Positions 6,649 through 30,115 of a DNA stretch of 32,000 bases are shown here, in pieces. Source of the DNA: Candidatus Brocadia sp. (GTDB taxonomy: Bacteria > Planctomycetota > Brocadiia > Brocadiales > Brocadiaceae). The stretch lies in contig CP091279.1 of NCBI GenBank assembly GCA_021650915.1, positions 1,860,001 to 1,892,000 on the forward strand. Direction: 5' to 3'. The position numbers were made by a program, and so were the translations under genes. Numbering within the stretch: position 1 is the first letter of the stretch; every line of letters begins with the position of its first letter. The notes under the pieces were generated by a model that saw only the letters and a list, made by a program, of their open reading frames with translations, made no database searches and was not told where the DNA came from.

Positions 6649-6715
6649 AGTTTCGTGTTACAAAGGTATTAAAATTAAGAAAGATATGAAATAAAATACT
6701 CTTCAATTCAGCATG

Positions 6716-7975
6716 CTAAGGTTTACAATTCTGATTTAGTGGTTGTAGTTCTGATAGTTGGTAATATTTGTCGGCTTGGCGCTTGTAAATAATAAAAGAG
6801 ACGATAGAAACCAACGCAATAGACACCCACATACACCGAAAGCGGATACCATTATGTAACATGTTAAATAATAATAAAGACATAAAAAAGAACCATTTAT
6901 AGGGAAAATTTCCAAGTCTAATAAAAAAAAATATTGAACCCCCTAAAAATAATACAATGCCAATCATGCCATAAGAATCAAAAATCTCCGTTATTATGTT
7001 ATGGGCTTCTTGCCCTGTCGTACTGTCACCAACACTTATTTCTCCGAATCTACCTTTATCACCGCCTCTTCCAAGTATAACTTCAAATTTATTCTGCTCT
7101 TTAACATGCCCTAAAATTCGCTTATATAAGCTTGCTTTAATATCATAATTAGTGAATCTCTTAGTCATTAATTGCGTATATTGAGTTTGAGTCGGATCAT
7201 TTAGAGACTTCATATTAAAAACAGCATCACTTTGCATAATGACTATCGAAGTGACAACTAACATAGTTACTGGTACGAAAAATGATTTTTTATATTTTCC
7301 AAGTAATTTATAGAATAGATAAATATCTAACAAAATGATAACAGCAAGACCAGCCCTTGAAACAGATACCATAACAAAGACGTTCGAAAATATCAAAATT
7401 ATAATATTTAATATCCAGTACATTGCCTTTTTATTTCGTGTTTCTGTGTTAGCATAATTGATTAATATAAGCATGGAAATTATTAAAATTGCGTAGTAAG
7501 CCAATTGATTTGGGTTGTTAAATGATAGGGCATTTCTCACTGTTCCACCCTTAGCTTCTATCAGCCATGGGGTTATACAGGACACTAACAAACTCCAATA
7601 AAGATAAAATACTCCTTTTGGATTTGAGAAAATCCGATTAAATACAATAGAAAAAAGAAATACTATATAAAATCCGAAAATAAGTTGTATCAAAGTGAGG
7701 AAGTATCCCCCTTTAGAAATAGTTTCCATTGAATAGTACGAATTAACGATAACTGCCCATGAAACAAAGGGTATAAATGGACCTATTAAATATATTCCAA
7801 TTTGAATTTCACTAACATTAACTGCAATTAAAGTAGCTAGTGAAAGCAAAATAATTATCACATCAACGAATTGAAATCCACCTGAGGGCAATAAATAAAT
7901 TGGAAGCATTGCAAACGTAAGAATTGTCAGAATAACCACGGGGGTATGTAGATTTTTTTGTGCAAAAATATTCAT
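6716..7975 (-). CDS. Polytopic membrane protein, O-antigen ligase / Wzy polymerase-like
   Basis: 419 aa, about 10 or more hydrophobic spans. 'VSVSRAGLAVIILL' and the loop 'GDSTTGQEAHNIITEIFDSYGMIGIVLF' resemble the Wzy_C/O-antigen-ligase signature. No exosortase-type CSG motif. Confidence 0.7.
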   Translation of the reverse strand: MNIFAQKNLHTPVVILTILTFAMLPIYLLPSGGFQFVDVIIILLSLATLIAVNVSEIQIGIYLIGPFIPFVSWAVIVNSYYSMETISKGGYFLTLIQLIFGFYIVFLFSIVFNRIFSNPKGVFYLYWSLLVSCITPWLIEAKGGTVRNALSFNNPNQLAYYAILIISMLILINYANTETRNKKAMYWILNIIILIFSNVFVMVSVSRAGLAVIILLDIYLFYKLLGKYKKSFFVPVTMLVVTSIVIMQSDAVFNMKSLNDPTQTQYTQLMTKRFTNYDIKASLYKRILGHVKEQNKFEVILGRGGDKGRFGEISVGDSTTGQEAHNIITEIFDSYGMIGIVLFLGGSIFFFIRLGNFPYKWFFFMSLLLFNMLHNGIRFRCMWVSIALVSIVSFIIYKRQADKYYQLSELQPLNQNCKP

Positions 7976-8032
7976 TTTAGAAACACATAAAAATAAAAGA
8001 GAAACAATAGTGTTTTTATAGAACTTAGACTT

Positions 8033-10074: not shown

Positions 10075-10902
10075 CTAGTTAACCCTTCTCCATCCAGTCA
10101 ATGGACGCCCAAGCAGCTTTTCTACGTAAGCTATGTCTGGCTCAAATTCTTCAATCAAATTCCTTCTTATGTCAGGCTCTAATTTTGGGAGAACTCCCGA
10201 GGTGCTTGTATAGATTCGCTTCAAGCCGAGATTTTTAAAAAAATTAACGGGACTGTGTAGACGTCTGCCCCGCAGAAAATTTGCCATACTATTGCAAAAC
10301 CGAGACAATGATGGGAATACTGTATACGAAGCAATATTTACATGTTCCTCTGCCAAAACCGGCAAGGGTACATCATCAATTCCAATAAAATTGTATACCT
10401 GTTTCAATACTTGCCCGGGAAAAGCTGCAATATCGTCTTGCAAAATAATAAGAACATGTTCTTTCCCAAATATCTCCAACCATCTGCCCAAGTGCATGCG
10501 ATAGCGGCTGGATTCGATAATCCTTGGCATATGCATAATGGCTTCATGAAACTCACATCTTAATTCACCGTATAATTTATAATGTAAATATAAAGAAAAG
10601 CTGCGAGATGCTGGATCTCGAAGAGTAATAATGATGCGGCAGTTTTGATTATGTCGATAAAGCCTTGCTGCTGCTTCTGGTACATCAAAATAAGTAGGAC
10701 CTATCTCAGCGCAAAATTGACTATTCATACAATATCGAAAGTGTGTCCAATACCACGACCAACCTTTATCGAATCGTTCGTCAAAGAAAAAAGTTTCTTT
10801 TGTACCTTGTGGAAAGCAGAGTTGTGGATGTTCTCGCAAGCACCTATCAAGCCACGTTGTGCCTGTTTTTTGTGGCCCCACACCGACAACTTTTAGTTGC
10901 AT
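10075..10902 (-). CDS. Sulfotransferase (PAPS-dependent, Sulfotransfer_1-like)
   Basis: The track ORF runs to 11034, but its first 44 codons lie in a palindromic repeat. The likely start is ATG 10902 ('MQLKVVGVGPQKTGTTWL'). 5'-PSB loop 'PQKTGTT'; 3'-PB motif 'ITLRDPASRSFS'. Confidence 0.8.
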   Translation of the reverse strand: MQLKVVGVGPQKTGTTWLDRCLREHPQLCFPQGTKETFFFDERFDKGWSWYWTHFRYCMNSQFCAEIGPTYFDVPEAAARLYRHNQNCRIIITLRDPASRSFSLYLHYKLYGELRCEFHEAIMHMPRIIESSRYRMHLGRWLEIFGKEHVLIILQDDIAAFPGQVLKQVYNFIGIDDVPLPVLAEEHVNIASYTVFPSLSRFCNSMANFLRGRRLHSPVNFFKNLGLKRIYTSTSGVLPKLEPDIRRNLIEEFEPDIAYVEKLLGRPLTGWRRVN

Positions 10903-10921
10903 AAAAACATCCTCATTATTT

Positions 10922-11074
10922 TGTAACACTTTAGTTTTTTGAAAAATTACCATAATAACGATGTTGCCGCACGGTGTAGGGGCGAAGCATTTGCCATAAA
11001 TTGGCATACATGGATTCACACCCCAAGCAGGCAAATGCTTCGCCCCTACCTTTTCAAAAAACTAAAGTGTTACA
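10922..11074. repeat. 153-bp nested palindromic (MITE/REP-like) element in the GT2-sulfotransferase spacer
   Basis: Outer arms 10922-10945 (tgtaacactttagttttttgaaaa) and 11051-11074 are a perfect 24-bp inverted repeat. Inner arms 10976-10995 (gtaggggcgaagcatttgcc) and 11030-11049 are a perfect 20-bp inverted repeat with a 34-nt loop. Confidence 0.85.
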
Positions 11075-11084
11075 TTATTTTTAA

Positions 11085-11945
11085 CTAAACAACCTTATAA
11101 GCGTTGCGTTTACACTTCCTTCTATACACCACAATTACGCGACGAAGATATTTCAACAAAGAAAACGCGCATAAGACTATCGTTAGAACCCAACTTATGC
11201 GTCTTTCAGCCTGTAACCGCCAATAGGTATCCAAATTTCCCTTTTCCATCTTCCACAAATCAGCAGTTTGCCCCCTTTCACCATATCGAGCCTTGTAAAG
11301 AAATACAAGGGGAAGTTCCAAACGCCAGGTTTCATTTCCATCCAATACAATTTGGAGTTTAAAGAGATAGTCCTCTGAATGTCGCTTCATTGGTTCGAAA
11401 CGGTAAGGCAAATTACGTCGCATTATAATGGAAGGTGTCGAAAAACCATCGCGACCGCTAAATAGCAAAAAACGATAAGGGATTACCGGTGTTGCACGCC
11501 AAGTGTCTGGCAATGTAAGATCAGGCATCCCGGAGAGCACCACAGTACAATTGTGTACCGTCATGGCCACATGAGGGTGTGCCAGCATCCAGCCAAACTG
11601 AATTTCTAATTTGCGTGGGTGCCAGGCATCATCTGCATCCAAAAAGGCAATAAAAGGTTGAGTGGCAACCTCCCAACCTGTATTACGGGCCACCGATGGC
11701 CCACCGTTATGTTCTAACTTAACCACACGAATCCAATTTTTATCATAACGATTCTGTAATTTCATTATAACATTCAGCGTGTCATCGTCACTCGCATCAT
11801 CTACAAGCATAACTTCTTTGGGCAGATGTGTCTGTGCTGCGACCGAATCCACTGATCTCTGAATGGTTTGGGCACAGCGAAAGCAAGGGATCACAACACT
11901 GATCGGTGCGGTGGGCTTATTCATACTAAGACTATTAGGATTCAT
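11085..11945 (-). CDS. GT2-family glycosyltransferase
   Basis: 286 aa. 'ISVVIPCFRCAQTIQRSVDSVAAQT', 'VMLVDDASDDDT' and 'FLDADDAWHPRKLE' (DxD) give the classic GT-A/GT2 N-terminal layout. Confidence 0.85.
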   Translation of the reverse strand: MNPNSLSMNKPTAPISVVIPCFRCAQTIQRSVDSVAAQTHLPKEVMLVDDASDDDTLNVIMKLQNRYDKNWIRVVKLEHNGGPSVARNTGWEVATQPFIAFLDADDAWHPRKLEIQFGWMLAHPHVAMTVHNCTVVLSGMPDLTLPDTWRATPVIPYRFLLFSGRDGFSTPSIIMRRNLPYRFEPMKRHSEDYLFKLQIVLDGNETWRLELPLVFLYKARYGERGQTADLWKMEKGNLDTYWRLQAERRISWVLTIVLCAFSLLKYLRRVIVVYRRKCKRNAYKVV

Positions 11946-14784: not shown

Positions 14785-15684
14785 TTAATTCATTATCAAA
14801 TATCTTGAAACAATCCATTTTAAAATTTTTGCAATAACGGTTTCCTGTACCAGGACATCTACAACAAGACCATGCGCCTTTTCCCCTTGTATCTCATAAA
14901 ATTCAACATTCTTGCGTTTCTCAGGGTCTATTTTTTGCAGAAATAACTTCATATTTTCATAGAATTCGTCCCTGGTGCCATAAATCATTAAAGACGGTAT
15001 CCCTTTTTTCACAAGGGTGGAAAGTTGATTTGAAAAGCTTTCACTGATAAGTAAATTGGTGTTAATCCCCGCCCATTTATTATGAATCCTCTTGATGAAA
15101 AAAATAAAATTCCTTTTTATTCTTTCGGTATTCAAAAAAGTTCCCCACCTTTGCCATTTCAGTTTATTAATGTAATGTGTAATATCCTTTCTGCCCGCTT
15201 GATGAGTTACCCTTTCAGCATTATTTATCGTTGGAGCAGCAAGAAAGACTAAGCCATGAAATTTTATTAAATTTACCATACTTAAAGCCGTTCGTGCGCC
15301 AAAACATTCGCCTACGAGTATAATCTTGCCTGGGTTAATAAGATTCGTCAAGAAATTTATAATGTGCAGTAAATCTTGACTGAGCACCTTGTCAATACTT
15401 ACATCTTCAAAAAGCCCTGTGCTTTCACCGAGTCCCCTATAGTCAAAGCGAAAAGAAAAGAATCCTGATTCGGCTAATTGGCGCGCCAATATTACCCACA
15501 TTCGGTTTCGATGGGTTCTCGGTATTGACGCCCCGGTTAATAAAATAACAACTACTTTGTCACGTGATGAAGATGTATCAGGTATATGTAAAATACCAAA
15601 TATATCATAATTCCTGGTTTGAATAAAAACTGGCTTTTCCGTACATTGAGATCCAGGATTTTTTGTTGAATAAATATGAGACAC
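14785..15684 (-). CDS. Alpha/beta-fold hydrolase with Cys at the nucleophile elbow (GECFG)
   Basis: 299 aa. GTG start at 15684 with AGGAGG at 15694-15699. The fold signature is 'VVVILLTGASIPRTHRNRMW..FRFDYRGLGESTG..KIILVGECFGARTAL'. The elbow Cys127 codon is at 15304-15306. Confidence 0.7.
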   Translation of the reverse strand: MSHIYSTKNPGSQCTEKPVFIQTRNYDIFGILHIPDTSSSRDKVVVILLTGASIPRTHRNRMWVILARQLAESGFFSFRFDYRGLGESTGLFEDVSIDKVLSQDLLHIINFLTNLINPGKIILVGECFGARTALSMVNLIKFHGLVFLAAPTINNAERVTHQAGRKDITHYINKLKWQRWGTFLNTERIKRNFIFFIKRIHNKWAGINTNLLISESFSNQLSTLVKKGIPSLMIYGTRDEFYENMKLFLQKIDPEKRKNVEFYEIQGEKAHGLVVDVLVQETVIAKILKWIVSRYLIMN

Positions 15685-15703
15685 TTTATTATGCCTCCTA
15701 AGA

Positions 15704-16642
15704 TTATATTATGACCTTATTTGCAGGACAAACAATAAGTTTTTTACACCATTGTAAAATAGTTTGTACAATCTTTTCTGAACGGAAAGGAGGATGCAAT
15801 ATGAAATTCCAGGCAAGTCTTCGTTCATGTATTAGTGTAATGTCACAACTTCCGCCGTTTTTTTGAATCTGGTTACCAAGATCTCGAAATGCCTTTGTAA
15901 CTTTTATGGAAAGCCCTGATACTTGAATCAAAAGGGTTTTCCCTGAAAAATATTTTGCACTCTGCATCAAATTAAAAGATGCCGTTTCAACAAATATTTC
16001 TTTGTAAAGAGGATAACCAAGAACAGTTACCATTCCGTGAGTCATTAAATGTTGAATCATTTGCTCCGTAGAAATTATTTTTTCTTGTCTTACTACAGCA
16101 GAAAACTTGGCCGTACGGAAAAGATCGAGAAAACAACTTTTGGGTTCTATTATCGGTTCACAAAGCACCACAAACTCGATTCGCTTTTCAACCTCGGCCG
16201 CCATAAGGGCCACCGTACCCCCAAGTCTTATTCCCAAAAGACCTATCGAATCTAAATCTTCCTGTTCTGTAAAGACCTTTATGGCCATTGCGGTATCTGA
16301 AATCTGAGAGGAAAGCGTTGTGTCTTTAAAATCTCCTTCACTATCACCACATCCCCGGTAATGAAAACGAAACACCGAAAAACCATTTTGGGCCAGACTC
16401 CTGGCTATATCGATTTCCAGTCTCTGAGTAATCAAAGGTTCTACCAGATAGGGCTGGCACATTACAATTCCAATCTTTCTTTGACCATCAGATATATTTA
16501 AAGGTCGATGAAGAATTCCAAAAAGTCTCTTTCCTTCATGCTGGAAGAAAAAGGCCTTTTCATGTAGATTGTGCTCTTGATCAATCCGGCTTGCAAAACG
16601 GTCTATTTTTGACCAATCATTTTCTGATAATGTATTCAACAT
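15704..16642 (-). CDS. Alpha/beta-fold hydrolase-like protein with Arg in place of the nucleophile (GIRLGG)
   Basis: 312 aa. 'IGIVMCQPYLVEPLITQRL..FRFHYRGCGDSEGDF..IGLLGIRLGGTVALMAA'. The Arg139 codon (aga) is at 16226-16228. Confidence 0.7.
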   Translation of the reverse strand: MLNTLSENDWSKIDRFASRIDQEHNLHEKAFFFQHEGKRLFGILHRPLNISDGQRKIGIVMCQPYLVEPLITQRLEIDIARSLAQNGFSVFRFHYRGCGDSEGDFKDTTLSSQISDTAMAIKVFTEQEDLDSIGLLGIRLGGTVALMAAEVEKRIEFVVLCEPIIEPKSCFLDLFRTAKFSAVVRQEKIISTEQMIQHLMTHGMVTVLGYPLYKEIFVETASFNLMQSAKYFSGKTLLIQVSGLSIKVTKAFRDLGNQIQKNGGSCDITLIHERRLAWNFILHPPFRSEKIVQTILQWCKKLIVCPANKVII

Positions 16643-17897: not shown

Positions 17898-18944
17898 TCA
17901 CTTAGCAACTCTTTTACGAAAGAACCAAGATCTACGTACCAATTTCTTTGGAGCACCCCGAAGCAATAACTTTACACAACTATGAAATAGCGATAAATAG
18001 CGATAATGTTTAGGTGGAGGCGGCAGGAAGTCAAACTCTAAATCGTACCCATATGTCTTCAGCGTGTTCCACATATACAACTCTAATGTTTTACGCTGAT
18101 CTTGTTTTAAAACTTTCTTATATCCACCAACTGAATCTGATGAAATTGGTTTTATAACATTACTATGATGTTTTACCTTGGAAAGTGCTTGTGCATCTGA
18201 AGTTGCATAATATTGGGTCATTGATTCTTCGTAATTAATGTTTAAAAAATCACAAATCATTAGTAAAACTGTTTTTGGATCAGAGGCTAAATCTTCGTAT
18301 CGAATGGTTTTAACCCTTTTGGGTCCGAAATACTTCTCTGCAAGCATCCCATTTAATATACACTCATTCCATTCCAGAGAGATATCAGTAAGATTCGTTC
18401 CACCCAATTTCGCCCTCAACGTTGAAACAGCTACGTCACGCCCGTCACGTACCATATTTATGAATTTAGACCTAGGGAATAGCTTTCCAATGAACAGTAT
18501 GGAATTCACATAGAGCGGGGTTTTATCGCCCCATATTTCAATGGTACTTTTCGTATTAAAATATGTATTAACATGCATAACTATGTCTTGAAATGTCCGT
18601 TTCTTTAACCTTTTTACTACTTCTTCGATGACCGGTAGTCTTTTCCACCCATATACAATTCGTTCTAACTGTTTATTTATATCCTGTATCAAAGTAAATA
18701 AATTGTTATCTTCTGAAAGATCACCATACTTATGTAAGTTTGCACCAATGATTGGTATATATCTCGTTTCTTCCGGAATACATATTTTAGAGTGTGTGTT
18801 TAAAATGAGGCGCATAAGCGTAGTACCAGAGCGAGAGCACCCGACAATAAACAGGGGCGCATCCCTGTCAAGCGTATTTATCATAGCACTGTATCTTTCA
18901 TGTTCGAATAAACCTATCCAAGTAAATGGTCCAGACTTGACCAT
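17898..18944 (-). CDS. Sulfotransferase (Sulfotransfer_3/Stf0-like), paralogue B
   Basis: 348 aa. 'IVGCSRSGTTLMRLIL' and 'NMVRDGRDVAVS'. Collinear with paralogue A and identical at most positions by eye. The alternative ATG at 18884 ('MINTLDRDAPLF') would remove the overlap with the upstream gene. Confidence 0.8.
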   Translation of the reverse strand: MVKSGPFTWIGLFEHERYSAMINTLDRDAPLFIVGCSRSGTTLMRLILNTHSKICIPEETRYIPIIGANLHKYGDLSEDNNLFTLIQDINKQLERIVYGWKRLPVIEEVVKRLKKRTFQDIVMHVNTYFNTKSTIEIWGDKTPLYVNSILFIGKLFPRSKFINMVRDGRDVAVSTLRAKLGGTNLTDISLEWNECILNGMLAEKYFGPKRVKTIRYEDLASDPKTVLLMICDFLNINYEESMTQYYATSDAQALSKVKHHSNVIKPISSDSVGGYKKVLKQDQRKTLELYMWNTLKTYGYDLEFDFLPPPPKHYRYLSLFHSCVKLLLRGAPKKLVRRSWFFRKRVAK

Positions 18945-19885
18945 TCGTTCGTTACGATTCTTTTAAAGTAAAAACTGTCTTGCTTCACATGATTGTATCC
19001 GCGAATATTCAGTAAACAGGATTGAAATCCTGTTTTTTTAAAATGGTCGATCAATCCATACGCACAATCGTTATGACCACCAAAAGGAAATGCAAAATGG
19101 ACACAGGGTTTCCCAATCTGGTTTTCAATAATCGATTTACTCCGGTCTATTTCTTGCTTCGCTTCTTCAAGAGGCAATCTTGACAAAGAGCGATGAGTGA
19201 CACCGTGAGCGCCGATTTCCATACCGCACACACTCATTCGCTTTGCCTGTTCCCAAGAAATACCACAATCTTGTCTGATATCTGTTAATTTATTTGTTGA
19301 ATGCTTTCTCAAAAACCCTGTGACTTCCTGTATTTTATCAACGGTTATTGATTTCATACTATCAATGACACGTACGGCAAAAGATAATCTCGGTTCATGC
19401 ATTCTTTGTTCAAGTAATTTATTCTCTATTTCAATGCTATGAGTATCGGTACAGTCCCTCATCACTAGGGTGAAAACTTCCCAATCCCACACAGGTTCAT
19501 TCTTGCCAACATAATCTGTAGTCAGAAAAAATGTGGCGGGCAATCCCCTTTCTCTTAAAATGGGAAACGCCACCTCATAATTATCCCAATATCCATCATC
19601 AAATGTTAGTACAACTTGAACCTTTGCTTTTGCCTGTCCTGTGTGACATTGGTTTATTGCATCGGTTAATGAAATTATCGGATACCTTTTCCTTAATATA
19701 TCGATCTGTCTAATAAACGTTTTTTCGGTTATCACGGTATTCCTAGAATTAAATCGTACTTCTGGCAGCACACGATGATATAACAAAATTAAAAGTTTGT
19801 TTTTTTGATCAGTAAGTTTATTTTTCCAGTGGTTTACTCTATAAATAAGATTTTTTGCTGTAGTTTTTATCAAAATACTTTCCAC
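18914..19885 (-). CDS. Polysaccharide deacetylase (NodB homology domain)
   Basis: 323 aa, GTG start. 'VVLTFDDGYWDNYEVAFPILRERGLPATFFL', 'MEIGAHGVTHRSL', 'HFAFPFGG'. Confidence 0.85.
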   Translation of the reverse strand: MESILIKTTAKNLIYRVNHWKNKLTDQKNKLLILLYHRVLPEVRFNSRNTVITEKTFIRQIDILRKRYPIISLTDAINQCHTGQAKAKVQVVLTFDDGYWDNYEVAFPILRERGLPATFFLTTDYVGKNEPVWDWEVFTLVMRDCTDTHSIEIENKLLEQRMHEPRLSFAVRVIDSMKSITVDKIQEVTGFLRKHSTNKLTDIRQDCGISWEQAKRMSVCGMEIGAHGVTHRSLSRLPLEEAKQEIDRSKSIIENQIGKPCVHFAFPFGGHNDCAYGLIDHFKKTGFQSCLLNIRGYNHVKQDSFYFKRIVTNEWSSLDHLLG

Positions 19886-19918: not shown

Positions 19919-21478
19919 TTATCCCTCAGTAGTACCATAACTTACCCTTTTCCTAATCAGATTTAACATAATATAATCTTCTTCATCTAAACCTAACAAT
20001 CTGAATACAACAAAATAGAGACAAAGGCATCCTAATGTTATACCAGCGATGAAAGGGATACCACAATGAGGAAAGATAAAATGCTTTGCGGATATTACTG
20101 AACCGATCAAAACTAAACCCGATAAGAAGTGTTTGACATACGAGGCATTGTATGGATGTATTTTCAGAATCGTATATACTTCAAATATCCTGATCAAGTT
20201 TATTAATGTAACAGATATGGTAGTTGCTATAGCTGCGCCGACAATGCCGTATTTTGGGATTAAAAATAGATTCAGAATTATATTGAGCACAAATGTGCCT
20301 AATTCATTATATAGATTTACCAGGGGTTTCCCAATCATAGTGATTATTAAGCCACACGGGCCTGTCAATACATCGATAATACGAGCAAAACTCAAAATTA
20401 TCAAGCAGTTTATGCCGGCCAAATATCCCTCTCCAAAAATATTCAGGGCATAATCAGGTAGCAAGATTAACAATAAGTAATATGGAAAAGTCAAAACAAA
20501 CGCCCACTTGGTCACTACTGCATAATACCTCTTTAAAGAATCAAGATCTTTTTTATAATAAGAAGATGAAATAATTGGAGCAAATATAGTCCCAAAAGAA
20601 TAGAAAATAAGAGTCCCCAAAAGGATAAGACGACAAACAATATTGTAAACACCAACATCTTTTGAGGTCATAAAATACCCTATCATAAATGTATCTGTCC
20701 ATACACAAAAAAAGATCACCAACTGAGAAAAAAGCCGGGTTGCTGAAAATTTTGCTAATTCACTAAAATTGTAAATTGCTGTTATCTTTTTATCGAATAT
20801 AGCAAATTTTTTTCTAAAAAAATACAGCGCAAAGAAGGCGCCTAAAACAATTGACACTGTATACGATATTAAAGCACTTTTGAATTGCATGCCCAAGGAA
20901 AGCAAGATTAAAAAAATGACAACCTGAGTAATAGGTATTATTAACCTTTTTACATATACTTTATATTTCATTATTCTCAGAGCCTGAATTGAGGATAACA
21001 ATACTTCTGAAGCGGCCGCAAATGGGATTGCAAAAACCATAATTTTTGTAACTGAAGAGACCTCAGGTTTATGGAAGAATGAAACAGATATTGTATCTGA
21101 CATAGAATACAATACGATCGCACACAATATGCTTAAAGGAATAACTATTATCAACCCAGAAATAATAGCCCCCTTCGTTCTTTGAATATCTCTTTCCTGG
21201 TAAAAAATAGACACATACCGTAAAATACCATAGCCAAAACCACAAACTGACATGTCTGTGACAAAACGATTTATACACATCCCCAAAAAGAATAAGCCTA
21301 CATAGTCTGCCGAAAGCCATCTGGCGAGGATAAGGTTGAAAACAAAGGCAAAAATAGTTCCTATTATCTCGCCAAAACAATTTATCCCTGCGCCTTTGGC
21401 AATAGTCTTAATATCTTTTTGATAGAGTGTTTTTTCCCCTTCTTCCGTAATAGCACTATTTTCCATATTTATTCCCAA
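19919..21478 (-). CDS. wzx: Wzx-type (MOP superfamily) polysaccharide flippase
   Basis: 519 aa with about 12-14 hydrophobic spans. The 'polysaccharide biosynthesis protein' layout is typical. The track start 21478 is TTG; the ATG at 21466 ('MENSAITEEG') is the more likely start. Confidence 0.85.
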   Translation of the reverse strand: MGINMENSAITEEGEKTLYQKDIKTIAKGAGINCFGEIIGTIFAFVFNLILARWLSADYVGLFFLGMCINRFVTDMSVCGFGYGILRYVSIFYQERDIQRTKGAIISGLIIVIPLSILCAIVLYSMSDTISVSFFHKPEVSSVTKIMVFAIPFAAASEVLLSSIQALRIMKYKVYVKRLIIPITQVVIFLILLSLGMQFKSALISYTVSIVLGAFFALYFFRKKFAIFDKKITAIYNFSELAKFSATRLFSQLVIFFCVWTDTFMIGYFMTSKDVGVYNIVCRLILLGTLIFYSFGTIFAPIISSSYYKKDLDSLKRYYAVVTKWAFVLTFPYYLLLILLPDYALNIFGEGYLAGINCLIILSFARIIDVLTGPCGLIITMIGKPLVNLYNELGTFVLNIILNLFLIPKYGIVGAAIATTISVTLINLIRIFEVYTILKIHPYNASYVKHFLSGLVLIGSVISAKHFIFPHCGIPFIAGITLGCLCLYFVVFRLLGLDEEDYIMLNLIRKRVSYGTTEG

Positions 21479-21560: not shown

Positions 21561-22580
21561 TTAAGCGTTCTGGAAAAAAGATTCGAATGTCTTTCTTAAC
21601 CCGGTCATCAAATCATATCGTGGTTCAAAACCCAGTATTTTCCTGGCCTTTGAGATATCAGAGAAATTCCTTTTAACATCGCCAGGCCTGTGGTTACCAA
21701 ATACGATGTTTACTTTTTTGCCCGTTTTCCTTTCAACGAGTTCTTTTACAACTCTGGCTATCTCATTGACAGTCGTTTCTTTGTATGTGGCGATTTGAAA
21801 CACTTCTCCTCCTGTTTCAGCCATAGATGCCAGCATAATTGCCATCACAAGATCATCAATATATATAAAGTCTCGAGTTTGTTTGCCATCCCCATATATC
21901 TCAAGGGTTTCGCCTTTCAATGCCTGTTTGATGAATTTTGCCACTACACTATTTTTATGTTTCGACAAAGGGCCGTAAACATTTCCAAAACGCAAAGAAA
22001 TTGTCTTTATGCCAAAAGTCCTATAGTAGACAGAACAATAACCTTCACCCGCAAGCTTGCTTGCCCCATACGGGGAGACTGGCCTTGGTGCCTTTTCTTC
22101 ATGGATTGGAGGGTCCACCTCTCCGACCGGCGCTCCTGATGATGCAAAAATAAATTTTCCAACACTGTTTTGTCTGGCTGCCTCGAGCATGTTGAACGTG
22201 CCAATAACGTTGGCTTCCATATCACGTCTTGGATTCTCTACTGAAGTCCCTACGCCAGTATTTGCAGCAAGGTGAACAATACAATCTATATCTCTACAAC
22301 ACATCGAGCAAGTATTATAATCCTTAACATCTCCAATAATAAGCTCTACTTCAGGATAGTCGGATGGGTCCACGATATTGGATGAGTGTTGAGAATTAAA
22401 ACGAGATGTGCTTAACTCTACAAAGTTACAAACTTCTGCTAAATCGTCTTTGGTTCCAACGGAGAGGTTATCGAGCACCCTTATCTTAGCCTTTGGATTC
22501 TCTCCACGGAGACGGGCAATGAGACTTGTACCGATGAAGCCACAACCACCGGTAATCAAGTAATGGTTAGCAATATTCAT
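21561..22580 (-). CDS. NAD-dependent nucleotide-sugar epimerase/dehydratase (extended SDR, GalE-like)
   Basis: 339 aa. 'LITGGCGFIGTSL' (Rossmann fold), 'SPYGASKLAGE' (YxxxK), 'RFGNVYGP'. Confidence 0.85.
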   Translation of the reverse strand: MNIANHYLITGGCGFIGTSLIARLRGENPKAKIRVLDNLSVGTKDDLAEVCNFVELSTSRFNSQHSSNIVDPSDYPEVELIIGDVKDYNTCSMCCRDIDCIVHLAANTGVGTSVENPRRDMEANVIGTFNMLEAARQNSVGKFIFASSGAPVGEVDPPIHEEKAPRPVSPYGASKLAGEGYCSVYYRTFGIKTISLRFGNVYGPLSKHKNSVVAKFIKQALKGETLEIYGDGKQTRDFIYIDDLVMAIMLASMAETGGEVFQIATYKETTVNEIARVVKELVERKTGKKVNIVFGNHRPGDVKRNFSDISKARKILGFEPRYDLMTGLRKTFESFFQNA

Positions 22581-22780: not shown

Positions 22781-23953
22781 CTAAGCAGTTCCACTCAATG
22801 TTTCAGCACTCCATTTTATACCCCGAAAAATCGCGTCTCTGTTTATTTGATCTTTATATTGCTCAACTTTTCTAAATATACCCGTAAGCTCATCATCAGT
22901 AAGATAATTAGGTTTTAATCCGAGTTCCAGAAGTCCAGTATATTTTGGATTATAATAATGTTCTTCTTTCTCTTTCCTCGGGTTTTCTATATGATTAATA
23001 TTAACATTATATCCAAGTTTATTCCCTACTGCACAAACCTTATCGGCCAGTTCATTAACGCTAAAAGTCTCCGTTACCTGATTGAATATCCTTAGTTCTC
23101 CATTTTTAACAGGCTGTGTTGCAGAAAGGTAAACACACTGCATGGTATCTTTCAGATTCAAATATCCCCTTATCTGTCCGCCTTTGCCATAAACAGTAAG
23201 AGGATAGTTGGCTACGGCCTGCACAACAAAACGATTGAGAACGGTCCCAAATACTTCATCGTAGTGAAAATTGGGCACCAATTGAGAATCACGGTCTGCT
23301 TCATCAGTAGAAATACCATAAACAGGCCCCTGCATAAGATCGGTTACTCTGATACCCCATGTCCTTACATAAAACCAAAGCATATCAGTATCCTGTATTT
23401 TTGTTGTATGATAAAGAGAACTTGCCTGCCTAGGGAAAAGGAATTTATCTTTTTTCCCCTTATGGTTTATTTCTAACCATCCCTCTTCGATATCAATGTT
23501 AGGTGTACCATATTCACCCATTGTGCCTAGTTTTATTATATGGCAATCCCTATTAGCCTCTTTAACTGCGTACACGATATTTAAGGTGCTTATAAGGTTA
23601 TTCTGGAGGGTAAAAGCTGCCTTTTCCTGATTTATCATTGAATAAGGGGCAGAAGGCTGTTCTGCATAATGAACAACTGTATCAGGTTTATATTCTTTGA
23701 ATATTTTAAGAAGAAATGCGTAATTAGTTGCATCTCCTACATGAATATTGATTCTTTTCCCCGTGATTTTCTCCCAAATCTTCGCTCTTTGAATCAGATT
23801 TGGAGTTGGCAATAGTGGCTCACAGTCAAGCGCAATTGCAGCATTACGCCTAAAGTAATTATCAATCCCTACGACATCGTGCCCTCTCTGAGAAAAATAC
23901 ATGCAAGTAGGCCAGCCGAGATATCCGTCCGCACCCAAGATTAAAATTCTCAT
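22781..23953 (-). CDS. sqdB: UDP-sulfoquinovose synthase (SQD1/SqdB/Agl3 family)
   Basis: 390 aa, collinear by eye with plant SQD1 over its whole length. Matching blocks: 'GADGYLGWP', 'VVHYAEQPSAPYSM', 'IIKLGTMGEYGTPNIDIEEG', 'PRQASSLYHTTK' (SQD1: SFYHLSK), 'YDEVFGTVLNRFVVQA', 'PLTVYGKGGQIRGYL', 'FNQVTETFSVNELA', 'NPRKEKEEHYYN'. Confidence 0.85.
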   Translation of the reverse strand: MRILILGADGYLGWPTCMYFSQRGHDVVGIDNYFRRNAAIALDCEPLLPTPNLIQRAKIWEKITGKRINIHVGDATNYAFLLKIFKEYKPDTVVHYAEQPSAPYSMINQEKAAFTLQNNLISTLNIVYAVKEANRDCHIIKLGTMGEYGTPNIDIEEGWLEINHKGKKDKFLFPRQASSLYHTTKIQDTDMLWFYVRTWGIRVTDLMQGPVYGISTDEADRDSQLVPNFHYDEVFGTVLNRFVVQAVANYPLTVYGKGGQIRGYLNLKDTMQCVYLSATQPVKNGELRIFNQVTETFSVNELADKVCAVGNKLGYNVNINHIENPRKEKEEHYYNPKYTGLLELGLKPNYLTDDELTGIFRKVEQYKDQINRDAIFRGIKWSAETLSGTA

Positions 23954-25098
23954 ATAGCACTCTCGAAAAAATCTGCCTCTGATTTTTCTACACTTTTACT
24001 GGCCAGCAAATAATTCTTGCCAGCTTCCTTGCTCTCTGGTTTTTCATTTCTATGAAAACCTTCTTCTATTTGCCCGAAAATCTTATTATCCATTAAATAT
24101 TTTTTAATAGCATTCTTGCTCAAGGGTTCTTCTGTTGTCGACACATAAGATTTTTGCAACCTGTCGGAAATAATATCAGGATATTCATATTTTATTGCTT
24201 CATATATGGACTTAAATGCTGGGGTAATTACAAACATATCCTTTAATTCTAAGGAACGATGTACCTCTTCTTCACTCATAAGTTCCTCATATAATTTTTC
24301 TCCTGGTTTGGCGCCAATTTTTTCGATCTTTATGTCGGAAGGTCTATAACCATACCGCGGAGCAAGAAACTCAATCATAACCTCAGCGAGATCCGGAATT
24401 CTGACTATAGGCATCTTTGTTACGAAAACCTCACCACCCTTTGAAATGGTAACAGACTTTAAAACCAATCTCGCAGACTCTTCTATCGTCATGACAAAAC
24501 GGGTCATTCTCATGTCTGTAACAGTAACAGGACCGCCATTCCTGATTTGTTTCATAAACACCGGGACTACAGAACCTCTCGAGCCTATGACATTGCCAAA
24601 CCTTGTGCTGCTGAAGATAGTTTGAGTATTGCTTTTTACAGCATTTGCGGCTGTTACAAGCCTTTCACCCATAAGTTTTGATGTCCCCATTACGTTTGTG
24701 GGATTCACAGCCTTATCACTGCTTGTGAAAAGGACATTTTTTGCATTACATTTCCTCGCTGCACTAATCACATTTTCAACTCCTATGATATTCGTCCGCA
24801 CTACATCAAAGGGGTTATACTCAGAGAGAATAACATGTTTAAAGGCAGCACAATGAATAATAATATCTATATCAGATGAGAGTTTCTCTATTTTTTCTTT
24901 ATCTCTTACATCGCCAAGAAAACAAAAGACATTTTTGTTTTTGTACTCTTCCATCAGGAAAAACGTTTCAGATTCGTTATTATCCACAAGCCTGAGTTCG
25001 CCTGGTTTAAAAAAAAGGAGTTGTCTTACTATTTCCCTTCCAACAGTTCCAGCTGCACCGGTTATAAGGATTTTTTTATTATTGTAAAAGTCTTTCAT
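23950..25098 (-). CDS. CapD/PseB/FlaA1-like nucleotide-sugar 4,6-dehydratase (Polysacc_synt_2)
   Basis: 382 aa. 'KKILITGAAGTVGREI', 'HCAAFKHV', 'SSDKAVNPTNVMGTSKLMGE'. Its stop overlaps the sqdB start (ATGA at 23950-23953). Confidence 0.85.
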   Translation of the reverse strand: MKDFYNNKKILITGAAGTVGREIVRQLLFFKPGELRLVDNNESETFFLMEEYKNKNVFCFLGDVRDKEKIEKLSSDIDIIIHCAAFKHVILSEYNPFDVVRTNIIGVENVISAARKCNAKNVLFTSSDKAVNPTNVMGTSKLMGERLVTAANAVKSNTQTIFSSTRFGNVIGSRGSVVPVFMKQIRNGGPVTVTDMRMTRFVMTIEESARLVLKSVTISKGGEVFVTKMPIVRIPDLAEVMIEFLAPRYGYRPSDIKIEKIGAKPGEKLYEELMSEEEVHRSLELKDMFVITPAFKSIYEAIKYEYPDIISDRLQKSYVSTTEEPLSKNAIKKYLMDNKIFGQIEEGFHRNEKPESKEAGKNYLLASKSVEKSEADFFESAI

Positions 25099-25357: not shown

Positions 25358-27949
25358 TCATTTTCGCTTATAATAAAAATAATAATCAGGTACTATCTTT
25401 GCCTGATTCAGGATAGCTCCAATTATATTTGTTTTGGCTTCTTTCATGCATTCTGTAACCCTATTGATACGATCAATGGACACCTGGCCTGATTTTATCA
25501 CGAATATTACACCGTCAACCAAAGAAAGCAAAGGTGTTACATTATTCAACGTATCCAGTAATGGTGGGGCATCTACAAGTATGACATCATACCTCTGTTT
25601 CAAAATATCTAAAAACTTTGCAAAAAGTGCAAAATAAAGCGGCCCATCTGGTGTTGTACGTCCTATCCCGGCAGGCAAAAGGGATAAATTTGGTTCATTC
25701 ACTGGCTTTATATAGGAAAAGACTTCATTTTCTAATAAGCGGCTCCCAGACATACGACTCAAACGACTGATAATTGGCGTGTAATCCTCTTCAAAGTAAA
25801 TCCTTTTATCTTCATATCTTTCTATTCTGCCCGGTTCAAAAGTAAAAGTTCCCTGTTTCCAGCTAAATAATTTCTGAAGACGCTCCTCTATTTGCAGTTT
25901 TAAAGGACCTTGCAGTTGCTCTTGATTAATGTATCCGGCATTGATGAGGATGTAACCTAATGGTTGTCCCGTTCGCTGGTTTCGCTCTAAAGCATCTTTG
26001 AGCTGATCTTCTGTAATAAAACCGCCACGCAAAAGCATATTACCTAATCCATTTGAAACTGGATTATCCTGACTTTGAATGTGGAAGAAACGACCATTCA
26101 CGAAGGCGGCAGTCATGGTTTGCGTGTCATTTCTGATAGTAAGCTGTCCGCTTTGTTTTTTAAGGGCTATAAGGGAAAAAAGATCATCAACACTGTATTT
26201 GCTTAATGTCCCCTGTCGTATTTCATGAGACATAACGCCCTTCATTGCATTAACCAAGCCACTCTCCTTGCCATTTTTTACTGCAAACAAATGGTGTAAA
26301 GTTGGTCGATCGAGGTCAGCATCTACCATAAGTACGCGCAATCCGCCACATGCTAAACTAATGGCTGATTTTGCCAAGACGGTAGTTTTTCCCTCACCAG
26401 CAGCTGTACTTTCTACCAGAAGTACCTGTCCAGATGTTCCAAGTTGCATTAAAGGCAATTTTGAAATGAATCCACCAGAGATAGCATATTGATTATAACC
26501 TTCCCGACGTTTATTTTGATTGTTATGAGACTCGCCCGCTGATAAAGCAAGCGACTTGTTTCCCTTCAAAGATTTATCATACGGCAGTATACCAAGCACT
26601 GACAATCCTAACCGTCTCATGATATCTTCTGGAGTCCTTATCGTCTTGTCCATATATTCAAGGAAAAAACAAAGCCCTATACCAAACGTCGAACCCAGTA
26701 GAGCAGACAAAAAAATATTTAAAAATATTTTTGGTTTAGCTGGAGAAAGCGGCACCTCAGCCTCGTCCACAATACGGATATTATTCCTCTCCATGTTCCC
26801 AGTAAGATTAATCTCTTTTGCATGTTTAAGAAGAATATCATATATTTCCTGATCACCTTCCGCCTCTAATTTCAACATGTCATAATTGATAGCTTTTTCA
26901 CCATGGGAAACTATCGGTCTCTGCGTATCCCGAATTTGCTGTGTAGACTTTTCAAGAGCTACAATCCGATCCAGTTCTGCCTTAAGAGTCTTTCTTATTG
27001 CCTCTACCTCATTGATAATATCCTGCTCCAATTGTTTAATACTGGAATTAATTTCGATCATTTTCGGATGCTTGGGACCGTACTTGGTAGCAAATTCCGA
27101 TCTCCGTGTCTTGAGTTCACTCAATTTGCTATAGAGCCCTTGAATGACGGTACTTCCCGAGATTTCTGGCAAGGAAAACAGATTTTTGTCATCAATAGAA
27201 AATGCCCTGAGTATCTCGTATTTGTATTCATAAACCTCTCGTTGAGATGTTCCTACTTTTGTTTTCTGATCCCTAATTTGTGTTTTAAGCCATTCTATTG
27301 CTTGCTGAGAGAATAAATGCTGCATTTGCATATTTTTAGCAATAAACGCATGGGCATGTGCGTTAGCAACGCGCGCAGCGATTTCAGGCGATTGGCTTAT
27401 GAAGTTAATATTGACGAGATTAGTCCCTGAAATGGGGATAATCATAAGATTCGACAAATACCAGTCAACAATCCAGGCTGGGTACGGTGGAACAAATTTT
27501 TCTGAAGCCTCTTGAGGAATATTTGATATGCCAATCTCTGATGAAGCGGAAGGTTTGACAGATGTGTTAGAAGATACAGCCAAATTGTCTGAATTTTGAG
27601 TTTCAGAAATGCCTAGTTCTCTCCAGAGTTTTAACTCTTGAATGACGTCTTTTGCGAGATTTCTGCTCATTAGTAAATTATATTGTGTTTGATAATAATC
27701 CTGATCAATGGTATTTGTCGCCATTACATCTGCCATTTCATTTATAAAGGAAGATTGTCTTTCAATAATGATCTGTGTGGCGGCTTTATAGAGAGGGGTT
27801 GTAGAAAATGAGACGATAGTTACGGCACATACTACAATGAAAAGGAAGATAATGGCTACCCATTTACGCTTTCTTATGATGTCGATATAATCGGTTAGAT
27901 GCGCTTGCTGTGGAAATAATTTTTGGTTTGATGGAAGCTCAAGATTCAT
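25358..27949 (-). CDS. Fused polysaccharide co-polymerase (Wzz/GNVR) and bacterial tyrosine autokinase carrying an inserted DUF4388/T2SSE_N-like module
   Basis: 863 aa. TM1 is aa ~30-50, followed by a periplasmic coiled-coil region. 'NNIRIVDEAEVPLSPAKP' is followed by TM2 at aa ~408-430. Walker A is AAGEGKT (516-522), Walker A' VLMVDADLDRP (539-549), Walker B YDVILVDAPP (787-796). The C-terminal Tyr cluster is DYYFYYKRK. Confidence 0.85.
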   Translation of the reverse strand: MNLELPSNQKLFPQQAHLTDYIDIIRKRKWVAIIFLFIVVCAVTIVSFSTTPLYKAATQIIIERQSSFINEMADVMATNTIDQDYYQTQYNLLMSRNLAKDVIQELKLWRELGISETQNSDNLAVSSNTSVKPSASSEIGISNIPQEASEKFVPPYPAWIVDWYLSNLMIIPISGTNLVNINFISQSPEIAARVANAHAHAFIAKNMQMQHLFSQQAIEWLKTQIRDQKTKVGTSQREVYEYKYEILRAFSIDDKNLFSLPEISGSTVIQGLYSKLSELKTRRSEFATKYGPKHPKMIEINSSIKQLEQDIINEVEAIRKTLKAELDRIVALEKSTQQIRDTQRPIVSHGEKAINYDMLKLEAEGDQEIYDILLKHAKEINLTGNMERNNIRIVDEAEVPLSPAKPKIFLNIFLSALLGSTFGIGLCFFLEYMDKTIRTPEDIMRRLGLSVLGILPYDKSLKGNKSLALSAGESHNNQNKRREGYNQYAISGGFISKLPLMQLGTSGQVLLVESTAAGEGKTTVLAKSAISLACGGLRVLMVDADLDRPTLHHLFAVKNGKESGLVNAMKGVMSHEIRQGTLSKYSVDDLFSLIALKKQSGQLTIRNDTQTMTAAFVNGRFFHIQSQDNPVSNGLGNMLLRGGFITEDQLKDALERNQRTGQPLGYILINAGYINQEQLQGPLKLQIEERLQKLFSWKQGTFTFEPGRIERYEDKRIYFEEDYTPIISRLSRMSGSRLLENEVFSYIKPVNEPNLSLLPAGIGRTTPDGPLYFALFAKFLDILKQRYDVILVDAPPLLDTLNNVTPLLSLVDGVIFVIKSGQVSIDRINRVTECMKEAKTNIIGAILNQAKIVPDYYFYYKRK

Positions 27950-27982: not shown

Positions 27983-28573
27983 TTAGAAATACCGTCCTGG
28001 CACCCGAATAATGTCGTCGGGCATTACAATATCGTCCATTTTCGCCTTGAACTCCTTTTCTACGCCATCTTTTTTGCGGACAATAATCGCGCGCTTAGGA
28101 GAGGCGCGCTCAGTCTGTCCACCTGCCATAGAAATCGCTTGCCTTACCGTCAATTCTCTTTCCCATTTATGCTCACCTGGGTTTATTACTTCCCCAGTCA
28201 CAAATATTCTTTGTTTCTTATATTCTTTTAAGCTAACCTTCACTTGAGGTGCAATCAAATAACCATCAGCCAATTTTTTCTCAATAATGTTTTCAAGCTC
28301 AAATATCGAAAGACCGCTTGCATGAACCTTTTCAATAAAAGGAAAACTGAAATCTCCTTGCTGTGAAACTTCAACAGTACAGTTTAAGTCATCATTATCC
28401 CACACTTTTATATCTAAAACATCCCCTACATTTATAATGTATTCATCCTCAAGGTTTGCTGCGCACAGCGTCAAAGACGATACAAGAAACATGCTTATGA
28501 GAAAAGGAGTTATAAACGCTACTCTCCTGCTTAATGCATTACCCATATAATATCTGATTTTTTTAAAAATCAC
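27983..28573 (-). CDS. Wza/EpsE-like outer-membrane polysaccharide export protein (Poly_export + SLBB)
   Basis: 196 aa. 'YIINVGDVLDIKVWDNDDLNCTVEVSQQGDFSFPFIEKVHASGLSIFELENIIEKKL' followed by 'RIFVTGEVINPG'. An N-terminal signal sequence is present. The track start is GTG 28573; ATG 28546 is an alternative. Confidence 0.85.
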   Translation of the reverse strand: MIFKKIRYYMGNALSRRVAFITPFLISMFLVSSLTLCAANLEDEYIINVGDVLDIKVWDNDDLNCTVEVSQQGDFSFPFIEKVHASGLSIFELENIIEKKLADGYLIAPQVKVSLKEYKKQRIFVTGEVINPGEHKWERELTVRQAISMAGGQTERASPKRAIIVRKKDGVEKEFKAKMDDIVMPDDIIRVPGRYF

Positions 28574-29134: not shown

Positions 29135-30115
29135 TCATTGACCTCTCTGAAACAATACCGTTGATATCGTTTTTAAAACAATAAGGATATCAAAAAAGAT
29201 GGATTGATTTTGAATATAATATAGGTCGTACTCAAGCTTCTCAACCTGACCTTCTTCAGTACCGAAATAACCTCCTTGCACCTGTGCCCAACCGGTAAGT
29301 CCTGGTTTAATAAGAAAACGAAGTCGATAATGTGGAATATCCTTGGCTAATTTTTCAGCAAAATACTTGCGTATGGGACGTGTCCCAATAAAACTCATTT
29401 CTCCTTTTAGAACATTAAATAATTGAGGTAGCTCGTCAAATCTTATTTTACGCAATAATTTACCAATTTTTGTAATTCTCGGATCATTTTTGTCGGCCCA
29501 TGTTGGGCCAGTAACTTTTTCTGCATCGTTGATCATCGTACGGAATTTTAGCAAAGTAAATGGCCGCTCATGCAGCCCCAGACGTTCTTGTTTAAAAAAA
29601 ACCGGACCTTTTGATGACACCTTAATAACTAAGGCTATAAGCAGCACAAATGGCAATGACGCAATTATTCCAACTAACGATAAAAAGATATCCATACATC
29701 TTTTTGCAATTTTGTATAACGGGGGATTAAATTTTTCCCCCTGATTACGAAATAAAAACCACTCATCCTTAGCATAATGTATGGGCGCCTTCTCTGTAAG
29801 TGCTTCATAAAAATAAAGGGAATCATAAATGGTAACATTAGCAAATTTTATTTCCAATAACTGTTTTCTTAGTACAGGAAAATTCTCGAGCCTATGCGAA
29901 ACAACTACCGTACCAAACTTGTTTTCTCGGATTATGCTGAGAAGACTTTTCAACGACTCTGAACCATCAATACAAACTGTTCCAGATTTCTCTGAATAAT
30001 TTTTCATTACCGACAAGTCATAAGTTTTTAAATACTTACGGTCTCTAAGTAGAGACTCGATCTCATTTATTAGGGAATCATTACCCAGAAGAAGAACCTT
30101 TTGCTTCGTAAACAT
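29135..30115 (-). CDS. Initiating polyprenyl-phosphate glycosyl-1-phosphate transferase (bacterial sugar transferase family)
   Basis: 326 aa. 'KRCMDIFLSLVGIIASLPFVLLIALVIKVSSKGPVFFKQERLGLHERPFTLLKFRTM' and 'DELPQLFNVLKGEMSFIGTRP'. First gene of the co-directional array. Confidence 0.9.
   Translation of the reverse strand: MFTKQKVLLLGNDSLINEIESLLRDRKYLKTYDLSVMKNYSEKSGTVCIDGSESLKSLLSIIRENKFGTVVVSHRLENFPVLRKQLLEIKFANVTIYDSLYFYEALTEKAPIHYAKDEWFLFRNQGEKFNPPLYKIAKRCMDIFLSLVGIIASLPFVLLIALVIKVSSKGPVFFKQERLGLHERPFTLLKFRTMINDAEKVTGPTWADKNDPRITKIGKLLRKIRFDELPQLFNVLKGEMSFIGTRPIRKYFAEKLAKDIPHYRLRFLIKPGLTGWAQVQGGYFGTEEGQVEKLEYDLYYIQNQSIFFDILIVLKTISTVLFQRGQ

Follow-up and report, generated by a model that had tools for sequence, protein, structure and literature searches.

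Phototrophs are regarded as the makers of sulfoquinovose, along with a few rhizobia and Sulfolobus. Enzymes of the SQD1/SqdB family (EC 3.13.1.1; Arabidopsis, cyanobacteria, Rhodobacter, Sinorhizobium) have as their classical role the supply of uridine diphosphate (UDP)-sulfoquinovose for the membrane lipid sulfoquinovosyl diacylglycerol (SQDG). The subject here is a gene of this family in an anammox planctomycete. It lies in a stretch of 32,000 nucleotides from Candidatus Brocadia sp. (GenBank assembly GCA_021650915.1, contig CP091279.1, positions 1,860,001 to 1,892,000 of the forward strand), and this whole stretch is called the window. The gene is an open reading frame (ORF) at 22781..23953 on the minus strand, which has an ATG start and encodes 390 amino acids. 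The original prediction, made from the letters of the window, was that it provides a C6-sulfonated sugar for the repeat unit of an exopolysaccharide (EPS).

Agl3 of Sulfolobus acidocaldarius is likewise an SQD1-family enzyme, and feeds a non-lipid glycoconjugate, an N-glycan, through a lipid-linked oligosaccharide. Unlike the window protein it is archaeal, serves protein N-glycosylation, keeps Arg101 and has no described dehydratase partner (PMC4388408). According to a 2024 review, a carbon-sulfur bond occurs in just two sugars, sulfoquinovose and 6-C-sulfofucose. The latter, which differs from sulfoquinovose at C4, comes from the N-glycan of Thermoplasma acidophilum, an archaeal glycoprotein glycan, and no biosynthetic genes are known for it (PMC12421959). 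A 2025 paper also calls sulfofucose a sugar without a known biosynthetic route, and describes a soil Paracoccus that grows on it.

Two other systems resemble the locus in different ways. Pen of Bacillus thuringiensis is reported to turn UDP-N-acetylglucosamine (UDP-GlcNAc) into free UDP-6-deoxy-GlcNAc-5,6-ene, which is taken on by a second short-chain dehydrogenase/reductase (SDR) called Pal. The window likewise has two consecutive SDR genes, the partner of the SQD1-like gene is 46% identical to Pen, and a 5,6-ene is the species that SQD1-family enzymes sulfonate. In contrast to Pen/Pal, the partner has Met for Pen's catalytic Tyr, the second enzyme is SQD1-like and not Pal-like, and no pseudaminic-acid genes are present. 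The synechan (xss) locus of Synechocystis is, like the one in the window, a bacterial Wzx/Wzy-type locus with sulfotransferases for a sulfated EPS; sulfation in Synechocystis is apparently through sulfotransferases only (PMC8205485).

The window protein shares with SQD1/SqdB the fold, the length and the GxxGxxG, TMGEYG, YHxxK, NRF and EEHYY blocks, but has Pro for Arg101, Arg for Lys176, Met for Asn208 and Glu for Ala234. It falls in a class called PRM here (P100, R175, M207). Unlike canonical sqdB, genes of this class are never beside SqdX or SqdD and almost always beside a UDP-GlcNAc-dehydratase-family gene, in a polysaccharide and not a lipid context. The two genes would form a two-enzyme nucleotide-sugar module, which probably supplies a UDP-6-deoxy-6-sulfo sugar to a sulfated EPS.

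The SQD1-like protein

In a phmmer search of all PDB sequences, the best match of the ORF is Arabidopsis SQD1 (1qrr), with an E-value of 6.4e-132. Residues 2-382 align to 3-383 of the 1qrr chain with zero gaps and 49% identity, and the next matches (GalE, UXS, RmlB) have E-values of 1e-9 or worse. This confirms that the match to SQD1 is well beyond chance, and bears out the collinearity with SQD1/SqdB that had been claimed for the ORF. In pairwise comparison, the window protein and SQD1 are equally close (49%) as SQD1 and the SqdB of Sinorhizobium meliloti (45%). The nearest homologues are from Candidatus Jettenia, at 86-88% identity.

An AlphaFold2 model of the 390-residue protein has a mean pLDDT (per-residue confidence) of 79.9 and a pTM (predicted template-modelling score) of 0.86. 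Foldseek gives it a TM (template-modelling) score of 0.85 against 1qrr and at most 0.68 against the remaining SDRs. The loop around Pro100 (100-106) is modelled with low confidence.

The start at 23953 is right because it includes the GxxGxxG NAD motif and because homologues begin there; a 373-residue gene call of the same sequence (P0001) begins too late. All the strings that had been cited for the Thr..Tyr-His-x-x-Lys region and for SQD1-specific blocks are in the translation: GTMGEYGTP at residues 143-151, SLYHTTK at 179-185, VFGTVLNRFVVQA at 234-246 and EEHYYN at 330-335. Over its whole length, the NCBIfam equivalog NF041015 matches with 470.9 bits, under its cut-off of 575. This score was considered as evidence against the function and dropped: Arabidopsis SQD1 itself reaches only 484.7, so the cut-off fails to separate true synthases. 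Judged by its sequence, the ORF is a genuine and intact member of the SQD1/SqdB family and no generic epimerase.

The catalytic residues T144, Y181, H182 and K185 correspond to SQD1 T145, Y182, H183 and K186. In an alignment of 103 family members, Y181, H182 and K185 are conserved in at least 90%; T144 is invariant inside the window clade and under the 90% threshold family-wide. Alanine mutants of Agl3 are inactive for H95A, R101A, M145A, Y182A and K186A, and impaired for E147A, Y148A, S180A and T185A (PMC4388408). The window protein has H95, M145, E147, Y148, S179 and T184 at these alanine-sensitive positions. Among the Agl3 residues with inactive or impaired mutants, only R101 is not kept.

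A widespread subfamily

Among 1.84 billion representatives, searched exhaustively with HMMER, there are 494 family members at E<1e-30. In the 103-member alignment, the position of SQD1 R101 holds Pro in 75 sequences and Arg in 21. In window numbering, Arg-type and Pro-type proteins are best told apart by positions 100 (R versus P), 207 (N/H versus M), 233 (G/A versus E) and 175 (K/R).

A scan with the clade alignment, using one genome per GTDB species, gave 80 loci at 49-86% identity. These span at least nine phyla and one archaeon. The PRM class makes up 50 of them, all at 56% identity or more, and includes the window; in this subfamily Tyr-His, TMGEYG and other SQD1 blocks are invariant. Another 28 loci, at 49-53% identity, are PKN, a signature that differs from that of SQD1 (RKN) at position 100 only. 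The PKN group (L071-L095) is mostly from Actinomycetota, Chloroflexota and Acidobacteriota, and its members usually lack the dehydratase partner.

In a neighbour-joining tree with 100 bootstraps, the window clade of 22 sequences has 95% support and the validated synthases are all outside it. The PKN group clusters with the SQD1 group at 31%. On signature and clade, the window protein is assigned to a separate, widespread PRM subfamily, distinct from canonical SqdB.

Some relatives are unusual. Six SQD1-family proteins of 680-1160 residues (P0124, P0143, P0144, P0160, P0221, P0256) contain inteins (Hint, LAGLIDADG), inserted at varied sites of the conserved core. A distant SQD1-like subgroup (P0229, P0270) has Cys at the SQD1-R101 position, in AQQCSAPYS, and P0229 also carries a fused class-V aminotransferase/cysteine-desulfurase-like domain. 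The Cys and the fusion hint at another sulfur donor, possibly a persulfide, and at a position that would handle the sulfur co-substrate. There are also archaeal Pro-type homologues, at 6001-7167 of L012 (a Haladaptatus plasmid) and 10001-11152 of L008 (a Nitrosotenuis metagenome-assembled genome, MAG). These adjoin sulfatase-like/alkaline-phosphatase-family and LPG-synthase-TM genes, with no Pen-like gene, and the Haladaptatus protein reads TTTGVYG in place of TMGEYG.

A coupled dehydratase

The ATG of the SQD1-like gene (23953-23951) overlaps the TGA (23952-23950) of the ORF upstream. The original prediction had noted this ATGA coupling with a dehydratase gene, and it is there in the sequence. 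It had taken the dehydratase as mere context, however, and no feature of the system turns out to be better conserved than this coupling. L001-L007 and 13 GTDB loci share the 4-nt overlap. A Polysacc_synt_2 gene is directly upstream of the SQD1-like gene in Jettenia (L001-3), a deltaproteobacterial MAG (L004/5), another MAG (L006/7) and a Brocadiia MAG (L009).

Partner statistics were computed for loci with at least 1.3 kb on both sides, 45 PRM and 25 PKN. Of the 45 PRM loci, 36 have the partner adjacent on the same strand and 43 have it within 10 kb. For PKN both counts are 3/25. PKN-gene neighbours in high-GC genomes are housekeeping genes or ORF-calling artefacts, and uninformative. Partners from different phyla are 54-80% identical, and 39 of 40 have an SDK...MxxxK motif in common. 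The best solved relative of the window's partner is Pen itself (6bwc, 292 bits), followed in order by PseB/FlaA1, FnlA-like proteins, CapE and PglF. The [ST]DK acid/base pair is kept (SSDK), and the catalytic Tyr of YxxxK is replaced by Met (MGTSK), as in CapE, FnlA and PglF.

On the other side of the SQD1-like gene is a third extended SDR, called SDR3 here. Orthologues that are 63-69% identical lie directly downstream in L004 and L006, and SDR3 is also directly downstream in 12 GTDB loci. The gene does sit between a CapD-like dehydratase and a GalE-like epimerase, as had been proposed.

Little else recurs. No glycosyltransferase family is found in more than five PRM loci. Among the 37 loci with at least 5 kb on each side, 36 bear the partner, and in 13 of these, the Jettenia loci included, no other extended SDR and no DegT aminotransferase was detected. 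The SQD1-like gene and the coupled dehydratase would be a conserved two-gene nucleotide-sugar module with a near-obligate partner.

Sulfite and lipid neighbours

CysH-type reductases produce sulfite. In the cultured Histidinibacterium aquaticum (L031), a PAPS_reduct-domain gene lies 45 nt downstream of the SQD1-like gene. This strain, 176SS1-4, is one cultured carrier of the cassette, and Roseovarius nitratireducens TFZ (L048) is another. An iterative search for such genes in all loci and the window found seven. Six of the seven are CysH-type sulfonucleotide reductases (acting on adenosine phosphosulfate or its 3'-phosphorylated form, (P)APS) with a C-terminal ECG[LI]H, and five of these six also have the CC..CxxC iron-sulfur cysteines. 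The seventh, in L035, was rejected as sulfite evidence: it is a CysD beside CysC and CysN, a PAPS supply.

The cysH genes are beside the cassette in five PRM loci (L031, L066, L024, L068, L040) and one PKN locus (L095), and all six are co-oriented with it. The order is cysH-partner-SQD1-like in L040 and L068, and cysH-SDR-partner-SQD1-like-SDR3 in L024. In L095, from Saccharibacteria, cysH is 84 nt upstream. Chance alone would give about 0.4 such neighbours (~1300 genes sampled, with roughly one cysH per genome assumed), against the six seen. This link is the strongest available evidence that Pro100 enzymes, the PRM subfamily among them, would still use sulfite, and it supports that view.

Sulfolipid genes are a different matter. 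The SqdD of S. meliloti, used as a query, has no match in the window and the 80 related loci. An SqdX-like query, the family 4 glycosyltransferase (GT4) beside an Arg-type sqdB in Microbulbifer, gives only generic GT4 matches of at most 31 bits in the same set. The P0284 locus was checked for a cyanobacterial sqdB-sqdX pair; its context is non-cyanobacterial and sqdX is absent. In S. meliloti, sqdB is followed by a sqdD-like glycosyltransferase with a 4-nt overlap. That the setting is a polysaccharide and not a sulfolipid one is upheld by these searches.

One explanation would still be that the gene supplies UDP-sulfoquinovose for membrane SQDG, with its position in an EPS locus incidental. 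This is the classical role of the family. It is nonetheless very improbable here, given the absence of SqdD-like and convincing SqdX-like genes from the window and the 80 related loci. Arg-type homologues on plasmids and chromids, by contrast, do adjoin SqdX/SqdD-like transferases (for example L010 and L013), and the position of the window gene in its locus is conserved in Jettenia and across phyla.

Proposed function and alternatives

If the enzyme works with SQD1-type chemistry, NAD+ would oxidise C4 and a 4-keto-5,6-ene would be formed or accepted. Sulfite would then add at C6, and NADH would reduce C4 again. The product would be a UDP-6-deoxy-6-sulfo-hexose. Its sugar could be sulfoquinovose, the 4-epimer if the epimerase-like SDR encoded downstream takes part, or, with a substrate from the partner, an N-acetylated analogue. 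A plausible route to sulfofucose is the succession seen in the window, in which a 4-epimerase-like SDR comes after an SQD1-like enzyme. A glycosyltransferase of the locus would add the sulfo sugar to a lipid-linked repeat unit. After flipping, polymerisation and O-sulfation, the polymer would be exported as an anionic EPS of the anammox planctomycete.

The prediction of a C6-sulfonated sugar in an EPS repeat unit draws support from the SQD1 family, the EPS context and the cysH genes of relatives. That support does not extend to sulfoquinovose itself as the product, which is possible but doubtful. The product may instead be a relative, N-acetylated or epimeric, that the enzyme and its partner make together, which is about as probable. 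One specific and still speculative form is a coupled pathway on UDP-GlcNAc, in which the Pen/CapE-like enzyme would make the 5,6-unsaturated intermediate and the PRM SQD1 homologue would add sulfite at C6.

Several observations weigh against a sulfosugar. The window protein has Pro100, in AEQPSAPYS, where SQD1, Agl3 and S. meliloti SqdB have Arg101, and Pro is found here in 119/120 of the closest homologues as well. The primer for Agl3 R101A places that residue in AEQRSAP, the position of SQD1 R101 in GEQRSAPYS (PMC4388408); the genetically validated S. meliloti sqdB, from the plasmid record, reads AEQRAAPYS. In addition, SQD1 N208 is replaced by Met207 and A234 by Glu233. Against the active site of SQD1, the catalytic residues are thus kept, and Arg101 and two further signature positions are not. 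SQD1 R101 and N208 align with K84 and N179 of Escherichia coli GalE, which we take to be walls of the sugar pocket. Substrate or co-substrate may therefore differ. The tree sets the window clade apart with none of the known synthases inside it, but deeper nodes have bootstraps under 35%, so no sister group is claimed. There is no cysH in the window. Finally, no bacterial polysaccharide with sulfoquinovose or another sulfonated sugar was found in the literature searched, in which no paper addressed anammox EPS on this point. This fits the earlier remark that such a sugar is rarely if ever documented genetically. A search for 'sulfoquinovosamine' in the same literature found nothing, and a 2026 review of sulfoquinovose cycling never mentions polysaccharides.

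There are two other explanations. Perhaps the protein is the plain UDP-sulfoquinovose synthase of the original prediction, which acts on UDP-glucose and sulfite, while the dehydratase and epimerase make a separate 6-deoxy-N-acetylhexosamine (HexNAc) for the same repeat unit. The gapless 49% identity to SQD1 and the full set of catalytic motifs would suit such an enzyme, and Arg175, whose occurrence co-varies with Arg101 loss, could make up for the missing guanidinium. Many PRM loci have DegT aminotransferases or SDR3-like enzymes, which usually act after 4,6-dehydratases, and L095 is a Pro100 PKN relative with cysH and without partner. A plain UDP-glucose and sulfite reaction, however, leaves the conserved gene coupling unexplained: the partner co-occurs in 96% of cases and the 4-nt overlap is conserved, when no glycosyltransferase family is found in more than five PRM loci. 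The K176R and N208M changes track the partner. Furthermore, in the 13 of 36 well-flanked loci described above, neither a reductase nor an aminotransferase was detected that would take on a 4-keto-6-deoxy product.

Rather unlikely is a loss of sulfonation in the PRM subfamily. The protein would then act on the partner's product as a dehydratase, epimerase or reductase, and stand in for Pal or CapF on a pathway to a 6-deoxy-HexNAc. The residue that is essential in Agl3, Arg101, is gone, Asn208 has become Met and an acidic residue is gained at 233. The gene also occupies the place that a CapF, Pal or PseC-type enzyme has after a CapE, Pen or PseB dehydratase, and Pen is reported to hand its 5,6-ene to a second SDR. 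Sulfite-producing reductases by five PRM cassettes would have no role in such a pathway, though, and the invariance of Tyr-His, TMGEYG and other SQD1 blocks argues against it. The loss of Arg101 was also considered by itself as proof of lost sulfonation; the cysH neighbours and the Pro100 PKN group weaken it as such.

The polysaccharide locus

The genes of the locus are all on the minus strand (Table 1). The locus is of the Wzx/Wzy type, for an O-sulfated polysaccharide. The flippase, exporter and chain-length regulator that had been listed for it are found; the polymerase is a weak call, with a syntenic Jettenia orthologue that also has a weak Wzy_C call. The polymer is probably multiply O-sulfated, independent of any sulfonate, and the tandem sulfotransferases are 72.6% identical to each other. 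The two overlapping ORFs that interrupt the locus may be a frameshifted insertion.

Table 1 Features of the window, in order of position.
Feature	Position	Strand	Evidence
Mobile-element debris (DDE_3 and DDE_Tnp_1 transposases)	839-1864, 321-776, 30747-31508	minus	flanks the locus
GT4 glycosyltransferase, not SqdX-like	3584..4726	minus	
Right-handed beta-helix protein (lyase/epimerase-like)	4738..6648	minus	orthologue in Jettenia loci
Wzy-like polymerase candidate, weak	6716..7975	minus	PF04932 Wzy_C, 31.4 bits (cut-off 31.7)
AsnB-type amidotransferase	8033..9904	minus	PF00733, 291 bits; TIGR03108, 474 bits, below cut-off
Third, divergent sulfotransferase	10075..11034	minus	PF00685, 51.6 bits
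Family 2 glycosyltransferase (GT2)	11085..11945	minus	PF00535, 106 bits
Interruption: two overlapping ORFs	12068-13298	minus	no Pfam match; between hydrolase pair and GT2
Alpha/beta hydrolase pair, like exosortase-A-associated hydrolases 1 and 2	14785..16642	minus	below cut-offs
Tandem paralogous sulfotransferases	17898-18944, 16772-17803	minus	PF13469, 118 and 112 bits
Polysaccharide deacetylase	18914..19885	minus	PF01522, 89.6 bits
Wzx-like MOP flippase	19919..21478	minus	PF01943, 72.5 bits
Third extended SDR (SDR3), 4-epimerase-like (WbpP/WbgU/GalE relatives)	21561..22580	minus	best solved relatives are UDP-hexose/HexNAc 4-epimerases
SQD1/SqdB-family extended SDR, PRM subfamily (Pro100, Arg175, Met207, Glu233), predicted sulfosugar nucleotide synthase	22781..23953	minus	
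ATGA stop/start overlap of two genes	23950..23953	minus	read from sequence
PseB/Pen/CapE-family UDP-GlcNAc dehydratase-like partner	23950..25098	minus	PF02719 Polysacc_synt_2 (CapD/PseB family), 327 bits; SSDK...MGTSK
Wzc-like chain-length regulator/tyrosine-kinase-type ATPase	25358..27949	minus	Wzz, GNVR and P-loop
Wza-like polysaccharide export protein	27983..28573	minus	PF02563 and SLBB
Priming polyprenyl-phosphate glycosylphosphotransferase	29135..30115	minus	TIGR03025, 328 bits, above cut-off

For the amidotransferase, hydrolases and glycosyltransferases, the best matches are TIGR families of XrtA/PEP-CTERM EPS loci, all below their cut-offs, and no exosortase is present in the window. 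Between 21400 and 25500, a promoter scan gave nothing above shuffled expectation, and a terminator scan no more than a weak hairpin of 5 bp at the stop codon.

The Wzc-like protein has an insertion at residues ~579-710, between the halves of its P-loop ATPase. It consists of DUF4388/PatA_N and an MshEN-type motif (NF053729, 54 bits, cut-off 38) that binds cyclic di-GMP, and the same arrangement is found in Jettenia L001-L003. This suggests that EPS export may be under cyclic di-GMP control.

Jettenia contigs carry a syntenic locus, with some differences. In L001-L003 an ABC_tran and ABC2_membrane pair (6579-8471) lies between Wzc and the dehydratase partner, and the window has none. The central variable part also differs, with NTP_transf_5 instead of SDR3, and no sulfotransferases are found within the 21 kb shown.

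Significance

A sulfonate is acid-stable and, unlike an O-sulfate ester, not removable by sulfatases. If the module makes a sulfonated sugar, it would open the EPS of anammox granules, which is strongly anionic and rich in sulfur, to genetic study. It would also be a large unrecognised source of sulfosugars in non-phototrophs of sediments, groundwater, wastewater granules and the ocean. This would help explain sulfosugar catabolism, including growth on 'rare' sulfofucose, where phototroph lipids are scarce.

For the family, the dependence on a partner and the Arg-to-Pro change in the pocket make the PRM subfamily a test case for a change of substrate on the SQD1 scaffold. Should the coupled pathway on UDP-GlcNAc be true, its product would be UDP-2-acetamido-2,6-dideoxy-6-sulfo-hexose ('N-acetyl-sulfoquinovosamine' or an epimer). 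This would be a third natural sugar with a carbon-sulfur bond, displayed in the surface polysaccharides of bacteria of at least nine phyla. Its makers would include anammox bacteria, Nitrospirota, sulfate reducers and marine Alpha- and Gammaproteobacteria.

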